In this document: in pieces, positions 30,713 through 44,669 of the stretch | Layout: every line of letters begins with the position of its first letter | Numbering within the stretch: the first letter of the stretch is position 1 | Origin: Patescibacteria group bacterium | GTDB lineage: Bacteria > Patescibacteriota > Patescibacteriia > Patescibacteriales > JAQVLT01 | Assembly (NCBI GenBank): GCA_028704015.1 | Contig: JAQVLT010000005.1 | Span: 10,820-74,819 of the forward strand | Reading direction: 5' to 3' | DNA: 64,000 bases | Position numbers and translations under genes: made by a program | Notes under the pieces: generated by a model | Told to the model about the DNA's origin: nothing | What the model saw: the letters and a program-made list of their open reading frames with translations, nothing else | Databases searched by the model: none

Positions 30713-31162
30713 TTAAATGACCTTTTTTACGCTAATAAGACCGTTCGCGTCTATCACAATTTCAAACGCAACTCTCTTTAAAGTAATCGGCGTATCTGAA
30801 AATATTGAATTAAGAAACCTATTAAATTCACTTATTTTATAACTACCGGACCAATTGGGAAGACCGAACTCTCTAGAAAACTCCACTAACTGGTTATGAA
30901 AATCAATAAAATTAATTATAGAATTTGAATATTCCCCGTTATCAACCCTTATAAACATATCTTCAATTATTTTGGGGCACCTCTCTATTTCTGAATGTAA
31001 AGCAAGATTACAGTAAAAATTTAATATGCTATATTTTTCAGGATGGCCTTGCATTTCTAAGACTTTTCTAATTCTAGACAATGCATACACAATATCCTCC
31101 TCTGAAGATGGAGCTATTCCAAATTTTTTCGATAGTTTTTCTAAAATTTGCGTTTTGCCCAT
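30713..31162 (-). CDS. hypothetical protein
   Basis: ORF 30713..31291 trimmed to the ATG at 31162 (MGKTQILEKL...), because the upstream part is the tRNA-Ser gene read as protein. Confidence 0.5.
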   Translation of the reverse strand: MGKTQILEKLSKKFGIAPSSEEDIVYALSRIRKVLEMQGHPEKYSILNFYCNLALHSEIERCPKIIEDMFIRVDNGEYSNSIINFIDFHNQLVEFSREFGLPNWSGSYKISEFNRFLNSIFSDTPITLKRVAFEIVIDANGLISVKKVI

Positions 31163-31199
31163 ATTTAGATAATCGAATTGATTTCGATAAAAATTGTCT

Positions 31200-31289
31200 T
31201 GGCGGAGAGTGAGGGATTCGAACCCTCGAGGACCTTTCGACCCAACAGACTTTCCAGGCCTGCGCCATAAACCGCTAGGCGAACTCTCC
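31200..31289 (-). tRNA. tRNA-Ser (anticodon GGA), class II with long variable arm, CCA encoded
   Basis: Hand fold of GGAGAGTTCGCCTAGCGGTTTATGGCGCAGGCCTGGAAAGTCTGTTGGGTCGAAAGGTCCTCGAGGGTTCGAATCCCTCACTCTCCGCCA. It has a 7-bp acceptor stem, anticodon loop CU-GGA-AA, an 18-nt variable arm, T-arm GAGGG/TTCGAAT/CCCTC and discriminator G. Confidence 0.85.
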
Positions 31290-31301
31290 ATTAATTCCGT
31301 T

Positions 31302-31338
31302 CCCCTCTCCTTTTAAAGGAGAGGGCTAGGGTGAGGTT
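31302..31338. repeat. purine/pyrimidine hairpin element (CCCTCTCC-TTTTAAA-GGAGAGGG plus GCTAGGGTGAGGTT tail)
   Basis: Read directly. Same family as the element inside ligA at 36225..36280. It lies between tRNA-Ser and the DUF559 cassette. Confidence 0.7.
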
Positions 31339-31340
31339 TT

Positions 31341-31819
31341 AGTTTTTACCTCCTACTTAAAAATGAGGAGGGACTAAAACACCACGAGATAAAGTTTTTA
31401 ATTGGTCACAATATTCAATAATATCCCCGACAACCAAATCTTGATTTTTGTAAACCTCACAATTTGAGTAACGCTTAAGCGCTACTCCGATACTTTTTAT
31501 ATACTCTTCTTTTTCTTTATCATTTTTTAATTCTTTATCGCTACTATGAGTCGCTCCATCAATTTCAATCGCTAATTTTACTTCCGGGCAATAAAAATCA
31601 ACTATATAACCGCCAATTCCATATTGCCGACGAAATTTATATCCAAAATTTCTATTTCGCAATTTCCGCCATAATAATTTTTCCGCGCCAATTTCTTGCT
31701 TTCTTAAAAAACGTCTGATATTTTTCTGATCTGTTTTATTAAATATTTTTCCCATATTTTTCGAAATGGGAGTTTAATTTTACCTCCTCCTGACCTCCTC
31801 CTTAAAAAGGAGGAGGGAC
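31341..31819 (-). mobile_element. putative DUF559 endonuclease cassette bounded by direct copies of a hairpin repeat
   Basis: AGTTTTTACCTCCTACTTAAAAATGAGGAGGGAC (31341..31374) and AGTTTAATTTTACCTCCTCC[TGACCTCCTCC]TTAAAAAGGAGGAGGGAC (31771..31819) flank the ORF. Each copy is itself a CCTCCT/AGGAGG hairpin. A tRNA gene is adjacent. Confidence 0.4.
31357..31755 (-). CDS. DUF559 (Vsr-like) endonuclease domain protein
   Basis: LLWRKLRNRNFGYKFRRQYGIGGYIVDFYCPEVKLAIEIDGATH is the classic DUF559 core. The last residues (VPPHF*) and the stop codon are encoded by the flanking hairpin. Confidence 0.85.
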   Translation of the reverse strand: MGKIFNKTDQKNIRRFLRKQEIGAEKLLWRKLRNRNFGYKFRRQYGIGGYIVDFYCPEVKLAIEIDGATHSSDKELKNDKEKEEYIKSIGVALKRYSNCEVYKNQDLVVGDIIEYCDQLKTLSRGVLVPPHF

Positions 31820-31839
31820 GAATGGCGCTCCTTTATTTT

Positions 31840-34435: not shown

Positions 34436-36586
34436 CTAACCCCTAATTATACTTAGGAACGCTTTCTCGTCAACCACCTTCACTCCCAACTTTACCGCCT
34501 TGTCATACTTGCTTCCCGGATCAGCGCCGGCGACAACGTAGTCAGTATTTTGGCTAACTGATGAGGAAACATCGCCTCCTAATTCTCTTATCTTAGCTTT
34601 TGCCTCATCTCTTGTCAAACTCTCCAAAGCGCCGGTTAGCACGAAAGTTTTGCCAGTAAAATTTTGACTTTTAACTTTTAATTTTTGACTTTCAATAACC
34701 ACTCCAGCCTTTTCTAATTTTTCCAAGAGCTCAATATTATGCTTATCGCGAAACCAATCATAAATACTTTGCGCTACGATTGGACCAACATCTTCCAATT
34801 TTTCCAAATCTTCTAAACTTAAACTTTGATAATATTTTGAAACTTCTGAAATGGTAAGCACTGATTTATTTGTAAATTTATGCGCTATTTGTGAATTTGT
34901 AATCTGCGCTGCCAAAAGTAAAGCACTCTCTTCCCCGACATGTCTGATCCCCAAGGCGTATAAAAATCTAGATAGAACAACCACCTTGCGTTCGGCAATC
35001 GCTTTGACCAAATTCTCAGCAGATTTTTCGGCAAACCTTTCTAGCGGTTCTAGATCTCCGACTGTTAAATTGTAAAAATCGCTCGCGTCGCGCACCAATC
35101 CTTCTTTCATCAATTGCTCAATAATTTTCGGACCTAAGCCTTCAATATCCATTGCACTTTTACTCGCCCAGTGCATCAACCGACGCAAATTAACCGCATA
35201 ACAATTTTTGTTCTCACAACGATAAGCCACCTCGCCCTTCACTCTTTCAATTTCACCATCGCACATGGGACATTTTTTTGGCACGTGGATTTCCTTTTCT
35301 TTGCCGGTACGCAATTTGGGTAAATTTTTTATAATTTTGGGAATCACATCACCGGCGCGCTCAATAATCACCGTGTCGCCAATTTTTACACCCAATCTTT
35401 TTATTTCATCCATATTATGAAGCGTAGCGCGTGAAATTGTTACTCCGGCAACATGCACTGGCTCTAACATAGCGGTGGGCGTTAAAGTTCCAGTTCGTCC
35501 GACCTGCCAGACAACATCGTTTAAGATTGTCGTCGCTTGAACAGCAGCAAATTTATAAGCCATCATGTAGCGCGGTCCTTTGCCAACCACGCCGAGAACC
35601 GGCCAAAGCGCCAAATTATTCACCTTAACGACTACGCCGTCTATTTCAAAAGGTAATTTTTCCCGCTTAGCTTCGCAATGTTTATAAAACGAAAAAACTT
35701 CATCCAAATCACGGCAAAATTTCACGTCTTTCAAGGTCTTAAAACCGAGAAGATGCGCCAATTGAATTTCCTGCTCATGAGTTTCCATTCCTAAATCGGT
35801 TGCCAAGGCATAAACATAAAAATCCAATTTTCTTTCGGCTGACAATTTTGGATCAAGCTGGCGGATTGAACCGGCAGCGCCATTTCGGGTATTAGCGAGT
35901 AGCGGCCGGCCTTCTTTTTTGTATTTTTTGTTAAGCTCTTCAAAAACTTTTTTGGTCATAATGGCTTCACCGCGATATTCAATCACGCCGTTTTCTATGC
36001 TGGCTAAAACTTTTTTGATTACTGCCGCGGCCAAACCGATTTTTTTAAGTTCGCTCTCGGTTGGCAGGCGCAAAGCTAGCGGTATGCTTTCAATGGTTTT
36101 TAAATTATTTGTCACATCTTCGCCCACTCGCCCATCACCGCGCGTTGAACCTTGTTGGAATGCTCCTTTTTCATATTTTAAATTCATCGCCAAGCCATCC
36201 AACTTTAATTCGCAGAAGTAGCCAACCTCACCCCCCGCTCCCCCTCTCCTAATTAGGAGAGGGGGCTGGGAGGAGAGGTTCTTAATAACTCTTTCTTCCC
36301 AATCACGCATATCTTCTTCGGAAAAAGCGTCAAACAAAGAATGCATTACAGAAGAGTGTTCAACTTTTTTGAACTTATCTAAAGGTTCGCCGCCGATTCT
36401 CTGGGTCGGCGAGTCGGGCGTGATAAATTCCGGATATTCCATCTCCAGTTTAAACAATTCATTTTTCAAGCTATCCAAAGCCGCATCAGAAATTTCCGAT
36501 TTGTCCAAAACATGATACAAATACCTGTAACGGTTAATTTCTTCACGTAATTTTTCAATTCTTTTTTTAATCTCTATTTTATTCAT
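34436..36586 (-). CDS. ligA: NAD-dependent DNA ligase LigA (with in-frame hairpin-element insertion)
   Basis: Adenylation motif CELKLDG, OB fold, Zn finger (CPMCDGEIERVKGEVAYRCENKNC), HhH repeats and a C-terminal BRCT (GKTFVLTG). Confidence 0.95.
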   Translation of the reverse strand: MNKIEIKKRIEKLREEINRYRYLYHVLDKSEISDAALDSLKNELFKLEMEYPEFITPDSPTQRIGGEPLDKFKKVEHSSVMHSLFDAFSEEDMRDWEERVIKNLSSQPPLLIRRGGAGGEVGYFCELKLDGLAMNLKYEKGAFQQGSTRGDGRVGEDVTNNLKTIESIPLALRLPTESELKKIGLAAAVIKKVLASIENGVIEYRGEAIMTKKVFEELNKKYKKEGRPLLANTRNGAAGSIRQLDPKLSAERKLDFYVYALATDLGMETHEQEIQLAHLLGFKTLKDVKFCRDLDEVFSFYKHCEAKREKLPFEIDGVVVKVNNLALWPVLGVVGKGPRYMMAYKFAAVQATTILNDVVWQVGRTGTLTPTAMLEPVHVAGVTISRATLHNMDEIKRLGVKIGDTVIIERAGDVIPKIIKNLPKLRTGKEKEIHVPKKCPMCDGEIERVKGEVAYRCENKNCYAVNLRRLMHWASKSAMDIEGLGPKIIEQLMKEGLVRDASDFYNLTVGDLEPLERFAEKSAENLVKAIAERKVVVLSRFLYALGIRHVGEESALLLAAQITNSQIAHKFTNKSVLTISEVSKYYQSLSLEDLEKLEDVGPIVAQSIYDWFRDKHNIELLEKLEKAGVVIESQKLKVKSQNFTGKTFVLTGALESLTRDEAKAKIRELGGDVSSSVSQNTDYVVAGADPGSKYDKAVKLGVKVVDEKAFLSIIRG
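36225..36280. repeat. purine/pyrimidine hairpin element inside the ligA coding sequence
   Basis: AACCTCACCCCCCGCT-CCCCCTCTCC-TAATTA-GGAGAGGGGG-CTGGGAGGAGAGGTT. It translates in frame as NLSSQPPLLIRRGGAGGEVG just before the KxDG motif. Confidence 0.75.
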
Positions 36587-36900: not shown

Positions 36901-38457
36901 TTATCGCGAACAGTTACCACCTTCAGCAATCCGCCACTGGTGGCAAGGATACGAATCAATTTGCATATTCCAAATTCCGCTAGGATTACCTAACGAATCA
37001 TAAAAATCCCAGTCAAAATAAGTTGATTGAATTTTCATTTCATTGGTTGTTTTACCTTCCACTCCATTGCAAACTCCGTCACCACTATAATTTGATTGTC
37101 CCGTTGATTCTTTATTCCAATAAGAATATGCACAGACTAAATGGTCATTTACACCGAACAAACCTCCGACGTAAGATGAACCAATTACCTCACCTCCAGC
37201 ATAACTATTTATAATTGATCCGTTATAAGCTTCACCAGCTAATCCACCAATTCTTGATACGCCGCTTACATAGCCAAAACTATAAGAATTTGAAATTGTC
37301 CCTTGTTTTAAATAGCCAAGCAAGCCGCCTATTCTATTCTGGCCACCTACCGATCCAGTCGAAAAAGAATTTGAAATCGTAGAGATAACGGCATATCCTA
37401 ATTGTCCAACCAATCCGCCAAGATAATCATTACCATTTACATTGCCGACAGCATAAGAGTTAATGATTGAACCATTCAAATCCCCGACTAAACCACCGAC
37501 CATATTTCCAGCGCTTGTTACAGCACATTCCGAATAACAACCAGATATAGCCAAAACATTTTGTTCTGTAGCTACTAAGCCGCCACCCAAAGCGACCAAA
37601 CCTCCTGCTTCGCCAAATGTGCTAGTTATTGTACCGGAGGTATGACAATTGGTTATTTGAGTACTCTCGGCTGTTCCTGCTAAACCGCCAACAAAACGAT
37701 AACCTGTAATATTTTCATTTATCAATCCAATATTTTTTATCTCCGCATTTTTAGTATAACCAAACAACCCAATATGAGTATAATTTGCAGGATATTCCGC
37801 GGGTGAAAAAGGTCTATTAATATACAAATTACTGATTGTATGTTCCCCTCCATCGAACACCCCTGAAAATTTATCACCAAAAACTGAATTACCAATAGGT
37901 TTAAATCCTTTACCATCATTCCAGCTCTGTGTTTCCGCGCAATCAACATCCTGAGTTAAAATATAATTTCCATCCAAGGGATAGTCGGTGGTGTCATCAC
38001 CAATCTTTTGCAACTCTTCGCAACTACTAATTGCCGTAATGACTGCAACCGACCCGGCATTTTCAAAACTAGCTTCTACGGCTCGAGTAGTTTTCCCATA
38101 AGTACCCACGGAACTAAAAGTGATATACTCATTAGTTAAATTATAATCAACTGAATAATTGGAACCATTAATTAAATTACCGGAGAACACATTGGCTTGC
38201 GAATAATTAGGAAGCGTATAACTATTTTTTTGCATTTCCCAAATAGATTTTTCTATACCTGTTTCCGCGGCAAAATAAGCCTTAACAGAATCTTTCTGTG
38301 TTTGGCTCATACGCAAACCCGATACCGCAATATTGGTCGCTCCCAAAGCGACCAAAAGAATAGCAGATAAAATCAAAAGAGTCATTAACAAGGCGGAACC
38401 TTGCTGATTGGGTTTGGGAAAGTTTTTATAAAATTTTATTTTTATTTTTTTAAACAC
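36901..38457 (-). CDS. PilX-like minor-pilin N-terminus fused to a GLUG-repeat adhesin-like domain
   Basis: The N-terminus QQGSALLMTLLILSAILLVALGATNIAV resembles the PilX_N segment. Residues ~229-445 carry about 8 GLUG-type repeats (VGGLAG, GGLVGDLNGSIINSYAVGNVNG, LGGLVGQ, IGGLLGY, IGGLAGE, VGGLFG). GTG start. Confidence 0.7.
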   Translation of the reverse strand: MFKKIKIKFYKNFPKPNQQGSALLMTLLILSAILLVALGATNIAVSGLRMSQTQKDSVKAYFAAETGIEKSIWEMQKNSYTLPNYSQANVFSGNLINGSNYSVDYNLTNEYITFSSVGTYGKTTRAVEASFENAGSVAVITAISSCEELQKIGDDTTDYPLDGNYILTQDVDCAETQSWNDGKGFKPIGNSVFGDKFSGVFDGGEHTISNLYINRPFSPAEYPANYTHIGLFGYTKNAEIKNIGLINENITGYRFVGGLAGTAESTQITNCHTSGTITSTFGEAGGLVALGGGLVATEQNVLAISGCYSECAVTSAGNMVGGLVGDLNGSIINSYAVGNVNGNDYLGGLVGQLGYAVISTISNSFSTGSVGGQNRIGGLLGYLKQGTISNSYSFGYVSGVSRIGGLAGEAYNGSIINSYAGGEVIGSSYVGGLFGVNDHLVCAYSYWNKESTGQSNYSGDGVCNGVEGKTTNEMKIQSTYFDWDFYDSLGNPSGIWNMQIDSYPCHQWRIAEGGNCSR

Positions 38458-38556
38458 AGTGGATTATAATTTTAAATATTAAACTCTAAACTTTAATTGA
38501 ATAAAAAATTTTAAATGATAAATTATTTATTATAATTTTGTTAATTAGTAATTTAA

Positions 38557-38613
38557 TCATTTGTTCATTTAAAATTGATTTAAAATTTATAATTTAATAT
38601 TTAAAATTTGTGA
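38557..38613. promoter_or_regulatory. conserved AT-rich intergenic element with phased ATTTAAAATT boxes, copy A
   Basis: About 57 nt, nearly identical to 44747..44804. Boxes start at 38567, 38578 and 38599 (11- and 21-bp spacing). The element abuts the stop codon of the upstream gene. Confidence 0.5.
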
Positions 38614-39180
38614 TTACTGGTATTGTCTAGACGATATTGTTGTCTGAATTTTCATACTTTGGCTAGTACCTCCTTTAACCGGTATTTCAATATCTGCGAC
38701 AATTGTGACACGAGGTTGCGCGCTGTTATCTACTAAAAAATTTAAACCAATTATTTTCATCTCTTCCGAAGTAATAAAGGCCTGAGCCCCATTACGATCA
38801 AGTAATATCATTGAATTTTCTCCTCCTTTACTACTCCAAGTATATGAAACACACTCGCCATATTGATTTATAAAAGCTAATTTCGAATTATTAGGAACAT
38901 TATAAACTCGGTAAACTTCTCCTGCTCCCACGAGATCGCAGAGATCTGTATCGGTTCCTTTTTGTGCCATTCTTATTTCCTTTGCCATGGTTTCAAAAGC
39001 ATAGCGCATATTTTCCTGAATATTCGCCGTAGTAATTGCGGTGCGCTGGCTAGATAAAACTAATTGAAATAATGAGGTTACAACGAGCATTATCAAAGAA
39101 AACAAACCAACGGCAATAACTATCTCTAATAGGGAAAAGCCGTCTTTGTTAATATTAATTTTTTTACGAAATAAACCCAT
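38614..39180 (-). CDS. type IV pilin-like minor pilin (PilW/GspJ-like)
   Basis: Prepilin-type N-terminus KDG|FSLLEIVIAVGLFSLIMLVV (G-F-x-x-x-E cleavage/methylation motif). Confidence 0.65.
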   Translation of the reverse strand: MGLFRKKININKDGFSLLEIVIAVGLFSLIMLVVTSLFQLVLSSQRTAITTANIQENMRYAFETMAKEIRMAQKGTDTDLCDLVGAGEVYRVYNVPNNSKLAFINQYGECVSYTWSSKGGENSMILLDRNGAQAFITSEEMKIIGLNFLVDNSAQPRVTIVADIEIPVKGGTSQSMKIQTTISSRQYQ

Positions 39181-44649: not shown

Positions 44650-44669
44650 CCTGCCTGCCGGCAGGCAGG
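44650..44669. repeat. GC palindrome family, copy 2 (CCTGCCTGCCGGCAGGCAGG, perfect)
   Basis: Perfect 20-nt palindrome in AT-rich intergenic DNA. Confidence 0.75.

Follow-up and report, generated by a model that had tools for sequence, protein, structure and literature searches.

In this work, we analyzed a 64-kb stretch of Patescibacteria DNA (the window, whose positions are used for all coordinates) in which a short palindromic repeat lies in frame within ligA, the gene encoding the NAD-dependent DNA ligase, just ahead of the KxDG adenylation motif. The G+C content of the window is about 38%, almost all of its genes are on the minus strand, and the palindromic element is a sharp compositional outlier. 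The ligA open reading frame (ORF) is unbroken over its 716 codons, and its product can be aligned to E. coli LigA from one end to the other (2OWO, E = 7e-158). The KxDG motif and the Ia-NTase-OB-Zn-HhH-BRCT architecture are present (Pfam domains), all LigA motifs are intact, and K128, D130, G131 and the four cysteines are invariant in the LigA alignment. An identical protein, the annotated LigA of a Patescibacteria metagenome-assembled genome (MAG), was recorded from NCBI and from an independent Logan assembly (P0001, two contigs). The features considered here are collected in Table 1.

Table 1 Features of the window and the E. coli gene ycjD.
Feature	Position	Strand	Evidence or remark
ligA, NAD-dependent DNA ligase, 716 aa, intact	34436..36586	-	ORF list; 2OWO match; AlphaFold2 mean pLDDT 86.9
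ELKLDG codons, ligase motif I; adenylation lysine K128 at 36203..36205	36194..36211	-	translation; alignment to E. coli CELKLDG
Palindromic BoxC/TM-type element, 57 nt, in frame in ligA, codes residues 103-121 = NLSSQPPLLIRRGGAGGEV	36224..36280	.	sequence, fold, triplex-motif layout
Perfect 26-bp core palindrome CCCCCTCTCCTAATTAGGAGAGGGGG: C-stem CCCCCTCTCC, loop TAATTA, G-stem GGAGAGGGGG	36240..36265	.	palindrome search
Intergenic copy CCCTCTCCTT-TTA-AAGGAGAGGG-CTA-GGGTGAGGTT, 19 nt past the DUF559 stop, just upstream of tRNA-Ser	31303..31338	+	sequence, triplex scan
DUF559 endonuclease-like gene, 132 aa, Vsr/EDxHD-type catalytic residues	31357..31755	-	Pfam PF04480, E = 6e-27
Degenerate hairpin CCCTCCTCA-TTTTTAA-GTAGGAGG, codes the last DUF559 residues, TAA stop in loop	31349..31372	-	sequence
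CGTC-tagged triplex-motif hairpin upstream of DUF559: CGTC-CCTCCTCCTT-TTT-AAGGAGGAGG-TCA-GGAGGAGGTA	31781..31820	-	sequence, triplex scan
tRNA-Ser(GGA), neighbour of the DUF559 cassette	31200..31289	-	ARAGORN; Rfam tRNA 53.8 bits
ycjD	E. coli K-12 NC_000913.3 (L173) 1351407..1351802		accessory gene

The perfect core of the insert is lengthened to 57 nt by imperfect outer arms (AACCTCtCCtCCC / GGGgGGtGAGGTT). The original prediction, made on this DNA before the present analysis, had placed a palindrome in the ligA ORF without a break of the frame; this stands, although its left end has to be moved by one position from the 36225..36280 given at the time. The encoded peptide lies directly N-terminal to G-YFCELKLDG, and the insert lies four residues ahead of the strand bearing the KxDG lysine. 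Alignment to 2OWO gives 11 residues more than in E. coli LigA, and the distance from the W..R motif to the KxDG motif is 36 aa compared with 24 aa in the basal Patescibacteria form, i.e., 12 longer; 11-14 extra residues had been proposed earlier. The RNA of the element folds at -44.9 kcal/mol (z = -4.8), and none of 200 shuffles (0/200) was as stable. Rfam holds no family for it, giving only sub-threshold matches to generic miRNA hairpins, and it was rejected as an intrinsic terminator, having no T tract and not being called by the terminator scan.

In an AlphaFold2 model of LigA built from 77 homologues (mean predicted local distance difference test score, pLDDT, 86.9), the insert residues are nearly all coil between a helix (90-105) and a strand (123-129), in keeping with the loop position anticipated for them. 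The pLDDT by block drops from 76 to 51 at the insert and falls below 50 at residues 115-118, the remaining adenylation domain scoring 90 or higher. This low-confidence loop of the model fits a tolerated insertion, as had also been supposed from the start and as the intact ORF and LigA motifs bear out. The element would replace the short phi-PGQKFD loop that, in the nucleotidyltransferase domain, connects the last helix to the strand of motif I, and LigA would carry it as a disordered 19-residue loop without lethal harm.

The identity of the repeat was addressed with a triplex-motif scan (a pyrimidine stem and its complement, followed after 2-5 nt of loop by a mirror purine stem), which returned three loci in the window and no more: the ligA insert, where both strands match, and intergenic motifs at 31303-31338 and 31781-31816. 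We also compared them with a layout consisting of a C-stem, a loop of 3-6 nt, a G-stem, a 3-nt loop and a mirror G-stem (G for G, A/T for A), with at most one mismatch. The ligA insert shows this layout on the plus strand at 36240-36279 (CCCCCTCTCCT-AATT-AGGAGAGGGGG-CTG-GGAGGAGAGGT, one mismatch) and on the minus strand at 36225-36265 (...-AGCG-GGGGGTGAGGT, no mismatches), its presence on both strands making the whole element a 57-nt palindrome; the two intergenic motifs show it with no mismatches. The pattern CCCTCTCC N4-9 GGAGAGGG matched twice in the window against 0.00 expected, the second time at 31303..31325 with the tail GCTAGGGTGAGGTT. The second family member that the original prediction had pointed out between genes is therefore real and of the same family, and its position can be refined to one flank of a cassette around the DUF559 gene. 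The tail of this intergenic copy, GGAGAGGG-CTA-GGGTGAGG, resembles E. coli CCCTCGCCCCTCTGGGGAGAGGGTTAGGGTGAGGGG downstream of ycjD, listed as TMECO no. 9 by Holder et al. 2015 (PMC4666352, Table 1). At 19/21 positions, the G-rich side of the intergenic copy (GGAGAGGGCTAGGGTGAGGTT) agrees with the type A TMECO repeats (GGAGAGGGTTAGGGTGAGGGG), no. 9 included.

BoxC/PIT/TMECO repeats follow the consensus CCCTCNCCC N3-6 GGGNGAGGG N3 GGGNGAGGG; there are 23 TMECO copies in MG1655, all intergenic, and 3610 copies in 262 proteobacterial genomes (PMC4666352). They form triplexes in vitro and are linked to rearranged or unstable loci in E. coli, no transposase or integrase is associated with them, and the function of BoxC/PIT/TMECO has been unexplained since the 1990s (PMC4666352). 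The element described here shares with them a C-rich stem of 9-10 nt, a short loop, a complementary G-rich stem, a 3-nt loop and a mirror G-rich stem, and both families are dispersed, strongly conserved, found as inverted pairs and of no known function. However, the strict TMECO consensus is matched neither by the ligA copy, with its stems CCCCCTCTCC/GGAGAGGGGG, nor by the intergenic copy, whose versions of the TMECO stems are 8 nt long and whose loop 1 is 7 nt. Further differences are the A/T-rich loop 1 (TAATTA), the two-sided ligA copy, the roughly one third of copies that are in frame, and the host: TMECO has been reported from Proteobacteria only (other G/C-rich motifs occur in Cyanobacteria), and the present host belongs to the Patescibacteria. 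Judged by its sequence, the ligA element would thus be classed as a two-sided BoxC-type motif, a relative rather than a strict member of TMECO, and appears compatible with an intrastrand triplex layout.

The repeat is dispersed well beyond ligA. Metagenome contigs were scanned for the exact inner 24 bp of the core, which was found in 91 stretches, both intergenic and in frame. Unlike the purely intergenic TMECO copies, the ligA copy is intragenic, and so are about a third of the exact-core copies: 29 out of 82 were located within open frames of 140 codons or more. These frames represent 20 distinct hosts, those identified by Pfam being ValRS, PBP2 transpeptidase, CCA-adding enzyme, TsaD, MurG, Lgt, KsgA, an exonuclease III family protein (Xth), Tgt and a GT2 glycosyltransferase. 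None of these 82 copies is in ligA. Among the loci selected by ligA, the same family is also in frame in gatA (L002), at a second LigA site and in a long ORF of L012. The TAATTA loop leaves one open frame per strand, so that every surviving intragenic copy is read as ..PLLIRRG... The complete copies (n = 60) have the common ends A-CCTC[A/T]CCCC ... GGGG[T/A]GAGG-T and a median length of 59 nt (range 46-96 nt). Often, an extra module stands on one side of the core; it may be AGGAGCGAAGCGAC or AATTAAA, or else a nested palindrome (CGCCAGCTGGCG or CCTGCCTGCAGGCAGG, for example). Among 20 asymmetric genic copies, 17 have the module 3' of the core as read on the coding strand, a count that orthologous copies inflate. 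The element had been taken for something like a MITE (miniature inverted-repeat transposable element) or a REP (repetitive extragenic palindrome); it is indeed a dispersed repeat (91 stretches, at least 20 genes), with the anatomy of BoxC/PIT/TMECO and not of a generic MITE or REP. A role as DNA uptake sequence was rejected, as three loci in 64 kb are too low a density.

Other repeats were observed alongside this family. ValRS (L107), KsgA (L075), TsaD (L103) and MurG (L093) each hold at least two different repeat-derived inserts in one host protein, such as HPLTPSLLKEGES and TSPPAPLLIRRGEKGER in ValRS, and TsaD and MurG also contain KFQITNSKQITNSK or NTKTRKHENTKTRKHE tandem peptides. At 44650..44669, the window has an intergenic perfect 20-bp palindrome, CCTGCCTGCCGGCAGGCAGG, of which L056 has two identical copies (15235, 15288) and L091 and L123 a near-identical version nested within BoxC-type elements. 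It looks like a second small repeat family.

We further examined the ligA site in 120 LigA protein homologues, with DNA for 66 ligA genes. The basal W..R-to-KxDG spacing of 24 residues and the loop phi-PGQKFD are conserved in distant lineages, and most LigA genes, that of the closest relative included (L001, 76% identity, without a GC hairpin), have no element. At least five other lineages (L002, L004, L026, L051 and L069) have the element type of the window at this very site, read in the same frame; the L004 copy holds a nested insert and folds at -91.7 kcal/mol. In the alignment of orthologues that the original prediction had called for, the segment goes together with the palindromic DNA, and the majority of orthologues lack the segment, which is not the distribution of an ancestral loop. 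The window, L026 and L069 have exactly the same 26-bp core in ligA, and L002 matches it at 25/26 positions, whereas four-fold degenerate sites between carriers are saturated (0.37-0.46 identity). In a LigA tree computed with the insertion site masked (100 bootstraps), the carriers are scattered and form a clade in 0 of 100 bootstraps, and each has a well-supported sister free of the element (support 92-100: L001+L004, 100; L002+L029, 92; L026+L067, 95). In addition, L052, 88% identical to L069, keeps just an outer-arm remnant, which indicates decay by deletion. The scatter of carriers among element-free sisters and a core kept constant despite saturated silent sites mean that the ligA site turns over fast and that the sequence of the element is kept constant by something other than LigA function. 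A single ancient insertion with vertical descent is not supported by the LigA tree, although the identical left junction described below is still compatible with it.

These results bear on three other explanations of the insert. First, the palindrome might be an artefact of assembly or sequencing, for instance a palindromic chimera, given that library artefacts can yield palindromes and that the source is a MAG; yet the identical protein appears in two assemblies from different pipelines, and the same insert, with the frame preserved, in independent JGI, ENA and NCBI assemblies of other lineages, so that we regard this as hardly conceivable. Second, an old lineage-specific LigA loop could have been kept for its peptide, e.g., for a protein-protein contact, the palindromic DNA being incidental. 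The PRPPLLIRRGG motif does recur in several LigA proteins, but dispersal contradicts this explanation, the same DNA and peptide being found in ValRS, MurG, KsgA and others as well as in non-coding DNA; conserved synonymous sites, sister lineages without the element and the low confidence of the modelled loop also speak against it, making it very improbable. Third, the hairpin may be kept in ligA for an effect in cis, either as an mRNA structure (about -45 kcal/mol) that slows translation before the active-site strand or as a hairpin or triplex in the DNA with an influence on replication, transcription or the local instability of ligA. The core conserved at synonymous positions across lineages with saturated silent sites, the very stable fold, and the TMECO repeats, which form triplexes in vitro and mark unstable E. 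coli loci (PMC4666352), would all agree with such an effect. Against it, most LigA genes, that of the closest relative L001 (76%) among them, do without the element; the identical core is equally conserved in unrelated genes and intergenic DNA, so that its conservation belongs to the repeat family and not to ligA; and PIT elements had previously been found in vivo to exert no promoter, terminator or polymerase effect (introduction of PMC4666352). We consider a role in cis unlikely.

The insert of the window is not the only one at this position. The variable loop folds at -15 kcal/mol or better in 9 of 66 ligA genes, and eight of the nine are GC-rich hairpin inserts. At least two repeat families are represented among these eight, one of the CCCCTCTCC type and one of the CCCCCTT..AAGGGGG type. 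Further LigA homologues have AT-rich repeat-like peptides at the loop (NYELRIKN, NFQFSIFN, LEVRSKK), and two more LigA sites, after residues 266 and 566, gather such inserts as well. The LigA loop before motif I is a recurrent hot spot for several repeat families.

Several side observations were made at these sites and around ligA. At the site before motif I, L001, L017, L029, L067 and L012 have non-GC inserts resembling heptanucleotide tandem repeats or AT palindromes (AGAAGTA repeats giving LEVRSKK; AATTTTAAATTTAAAATT giving NFKFKI), and differences between close relatives (L014 and L017) point to quick turnover of these inserts too. The window LigA has a second insertion relative to E. coli at residues ~563-580 (34802..34939, ITNSQIAHKFTNKSVLTISE), in which a palindrome was looked for and only AT-rich direct repeats were found; many Patescibacteria LigA have NYKLQITNKSQI, FSIFNSPAGEQFSI or similar there, and L011 has a 30-bp GC palindrome. 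A small nuclease-like gene of the PDDEXK_3 type (PF13366) lies directly downstream of ligA in L004 (8989..9393), L029, L013 and L006, and about 0.5 kb downstream in L066, and is absent at that position in the window; it may be another selfish cassette. Upstream of ligA, the window has pilin-like genes (36901..39180), one with PilX_N plus GLUG repeats (518 aa) and one for a protein with a prepilin N-methylation motif. Such pilin-like genes are typical of type IV pilus and competence loci of Patescibacteria.

Both triplex motifs of the window outside ligA flank the DUF559 gene (Table 1). The profile of its product has a strong match in PDB 3hrl (5e-28) and weak ones in PvuRts1I and in 3r3p, an EDxHD homing endonuclease domain (0.004); residues D53, E64, D66, H70 and D79 are invariant in 33 homologues. 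The unit at 31781..31820 also stands beside DUF559 in L166, L167 and L171, with a close variant in L172. By tblastn of the collected loci, DUF559 was found only in the window and in five unique loci selected by the element, 6/6 of them hairpin-flanked, and there was none in ~1 Mb of ligA-selected loci. A test free of element selection was provided by seven DUF559 homologues taken from a protein homology search and picked by nothing but the length of their contigs: all seven (7/7) have motifs on both sides, or encoded in their first or last codons. Together, these seven loci contain 17 motifs in 2.9 kb, all triplex-type, compared with 0.07 expected from the control density (P about 6e-35). The neighbouring genes differ at every DUF559 locus, and hence the gene and its repeats behave as a cassette. 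Moreover, about one third of the 33 aligned homologues begin or end in repeat-encoded peptides (PLLSKERG, PPLIKGR, PSLLRRG), and two MAGs from outside the Patescibacteria, one of Ignavibacteria and one of Nitrospirota, have the same repeat-flanked DUF559, the Nitrospirota one with direct repeats and the stop codon in the spacer. Altogether, DUF559 is flanked by repeats in 15 of the 15 MAG loci examined, in three phyla, and E. coli ycjD brings the number of phyla to four. Beside the cassette of the window, a 192-codon ORF without Pfam match (30713..31291) overlaps the tRNA-Ser on the same strand and is probably no gene over its full length.

In E. coli K-12, the TGA stop of ycjD lies in the loop of CCCTCTCCC-TGAAAGA-GCGAGGGGG, and TMECO no. 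9 is 168 nt downstream, a proximity with a chance of about 0.003 by our own estimate (18 TMECO loci in 4.64 Mb). The gene is present in 3378 of 5426 complete E. coli genomes (62%) and the TMECO-side flank in 3340, which is consistent with their being jointly present or absent. E. coli genomes with 3-6 TMECO-like places are all without the ycjD-side region, and O157:H7-type genomes without the region keep about 15; the relation of ycjD to triplex-motif copy number in E. coli is confounded by phylogeny and was not used as evidence. The ycjD start is overlapped by a perfect 17-bp inverted repeat (TCACCTCATTCTGACAA N11 TTGTCAGAATGAGGTGA). The papers found to mention DUF559 make no connection to repeats, and Holder et al. 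do not mention ycjD. We tentatively propose that BoxC/PIT/triplex-motif repeats, from E. coli to Patescibacteria, Nitrospirota and Ignavibacteria, could be the cognate DNA of DUF559 (YcjD-family, Vsr/EDxHD-like) endonucleases in a REPtron-like relationship, a possibility to which we give somewhat less than an even chance.

The element can also be compared with other known systems. In REPtrons (REP/REPIN repeats with a REP-associated tyrosine transposase, RAYT), short GC-rich hairpins likewise stand on both sides of a single nuclease gene and intragenic copies occur, but the flanked gene in the 15 MAG loci and ycjD is a PD-(D/E)xK Vsr/EDxHD-like DUF559 (PF04480) and not a Y1 (HUH) RAYT. CGTC REPs have no dedicated transposase, and their stems open with A-T pairs and have loops of 4-5 nt (PMC3733652); the hairpin upstream of the window DUF559 has a 5' CGTC (31817-31820), as do the L166 and L167 copies, whereas the ligA copy has no unpaired GTAG or CGTC tag. 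Intragenic REPs have been found in replication and repair genes, including one DNA ligase gene of Opitutus terrae (Di Nocera et al. 2013, PMC3733652). With MITEs such as Correia/NEMIS the element shares its small, non-autonomous nature, A/T-rich flanks, occasional in-frame intragenic copies and terminal inverted repeats, the last being evident from the common ends (A-CCTC[A/T]CCCC ... GGGG[T/A]GAGG-T) of the 60 complete copies; it differs in that no target-site duplication was detected and no parent insertion sequence with the same ends was found. The Vsr endonuclease and the EDxHD homing endonucleases (I-Bth0305I type) resemble DUF559 in that its E-x-D-x3-H...D residues fit their catalytic type, 3r3p being annotated as 'mobile intron protein' and 3hrl as an endonuclease-like protein; unlike them, the DUF559 genes are free-standing and not within introns. 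The classic example of in-frame palindromic repeats is that of the Rickettsia palindromic elements (RPEs; PMC10969869). Like the present element, they have entered a wide range of unrelated housekeeping genes of a reduced genome without breaking the frame, at permissive sites and with a conserved peptide (PMC10969869), and both decay by deletion. RPEs are about 100-150 bp long and confined to the Rickettsia lineage; the element analyzed here measures 46-96 nt (median 59).

Taken together, these results show that ligA holds a single, in-frame copy of a BoxC-type repeat that is GC-rich and dispersed in Patescibacteria, and they make it probable that this copy is tolerated selfish or neutral DNA. 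Its being a tolerated passenger of LigA has good support, and we infer that it would be functionally neutral for the enzyme. Four observations weigh against this interpretation: (i) the left junction is the same nucleotide in 6/6 ligA carriers, which one old insertion followed by many losses, or a site-specific mechanism, explains better than random insertion followed by selection; (ii) the core is 25-26/26 identical despite saturated silent sites, and as a passive old insert should drift, this points to a force at the DNA level (recent insertion, gene conversion or selection); (iii) a target-site duplication or defined target was sought in the flanks of the 60 complete copies and none was found, the flanks being just A/T-rich and the flanking dinucleotides matching in 7/60 (TA/TA), so that transposition is not demonstrated; and (iv) the role of DUF559 is one that we infer from adjacency only.

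The first of these observations invites a homing-like explanation, in which a nuclease such as DUF559 cuts the ligA loop and repair copies the element in, the same junction arising independently. The six carriers that share the left junction are scattered on the tree, the basal loop DNA (..ATN YTG CCC GGN..) resembles the CCTC(A)CCCC end of the element, the DUF559 profile weakly matches 3r3p, and a perfect 26-bp palindrome would suit a homodimeric nuclease. Nevertheless, with 0/82 exact-core metagenome copies in ligA, and with host genes and flanks that are very diverse and have no common target beyond A/T richness, we find such targeted insertion doubtful at best. The shared ligA junction itself may reflect one old insertion, microhomology with the basal CCC-GGN loop, or site-specific cutting.

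Returning to the solo in-frame copy as the favoured explanation, a mechanism can be outlined. Copies would survive solely where a single open frame coincides with a permissive loop, which would make the LigA loop a recurrent site, and selection would filter for permissive sites, as with RPEs and intragenic REPs. With moderate support, the DUF559 nuclease would move or maintain the repeats in trans, as RAYTs do for REPs. Its gene is placed between repeat copies, often with the stop codon in a repeat loop, and solo copies, among them those read in frame within ligA and other essential genes, would be made, moved or homogenised by the enzyme. The core would be kept constant through copying or conversion driven by the nuclease.

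Our results indicate that streamlined Patescibacteria genomes carry protein-coding palindromic repeats in a ligase, a tRNA synthetase, and cell-wall and RNA-modification enzymes, of which we found no description in the searchable literature. What is known from the RPEs of Rickettsia is seen here in another phylum, with an element of half their size. Such in-frame repeats matter for annotation and alignment-based phylogeny, and their positions serve as a natural guide to permissive loops. With DUF559 flanked consistently at all loci examined in four phyla, there is now a candidate enzyme for BoxC/PIT/TMECO repeats, and this association is the part likely to surprise specialists. If true, the partnership would explain the identical core across deep lineages, the presence of repeats at unstable loci and the missing transposase for BoxC and CGTC-type REPs. 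The association makes a question that is ~30 years old directly testable in E. coli K-12.

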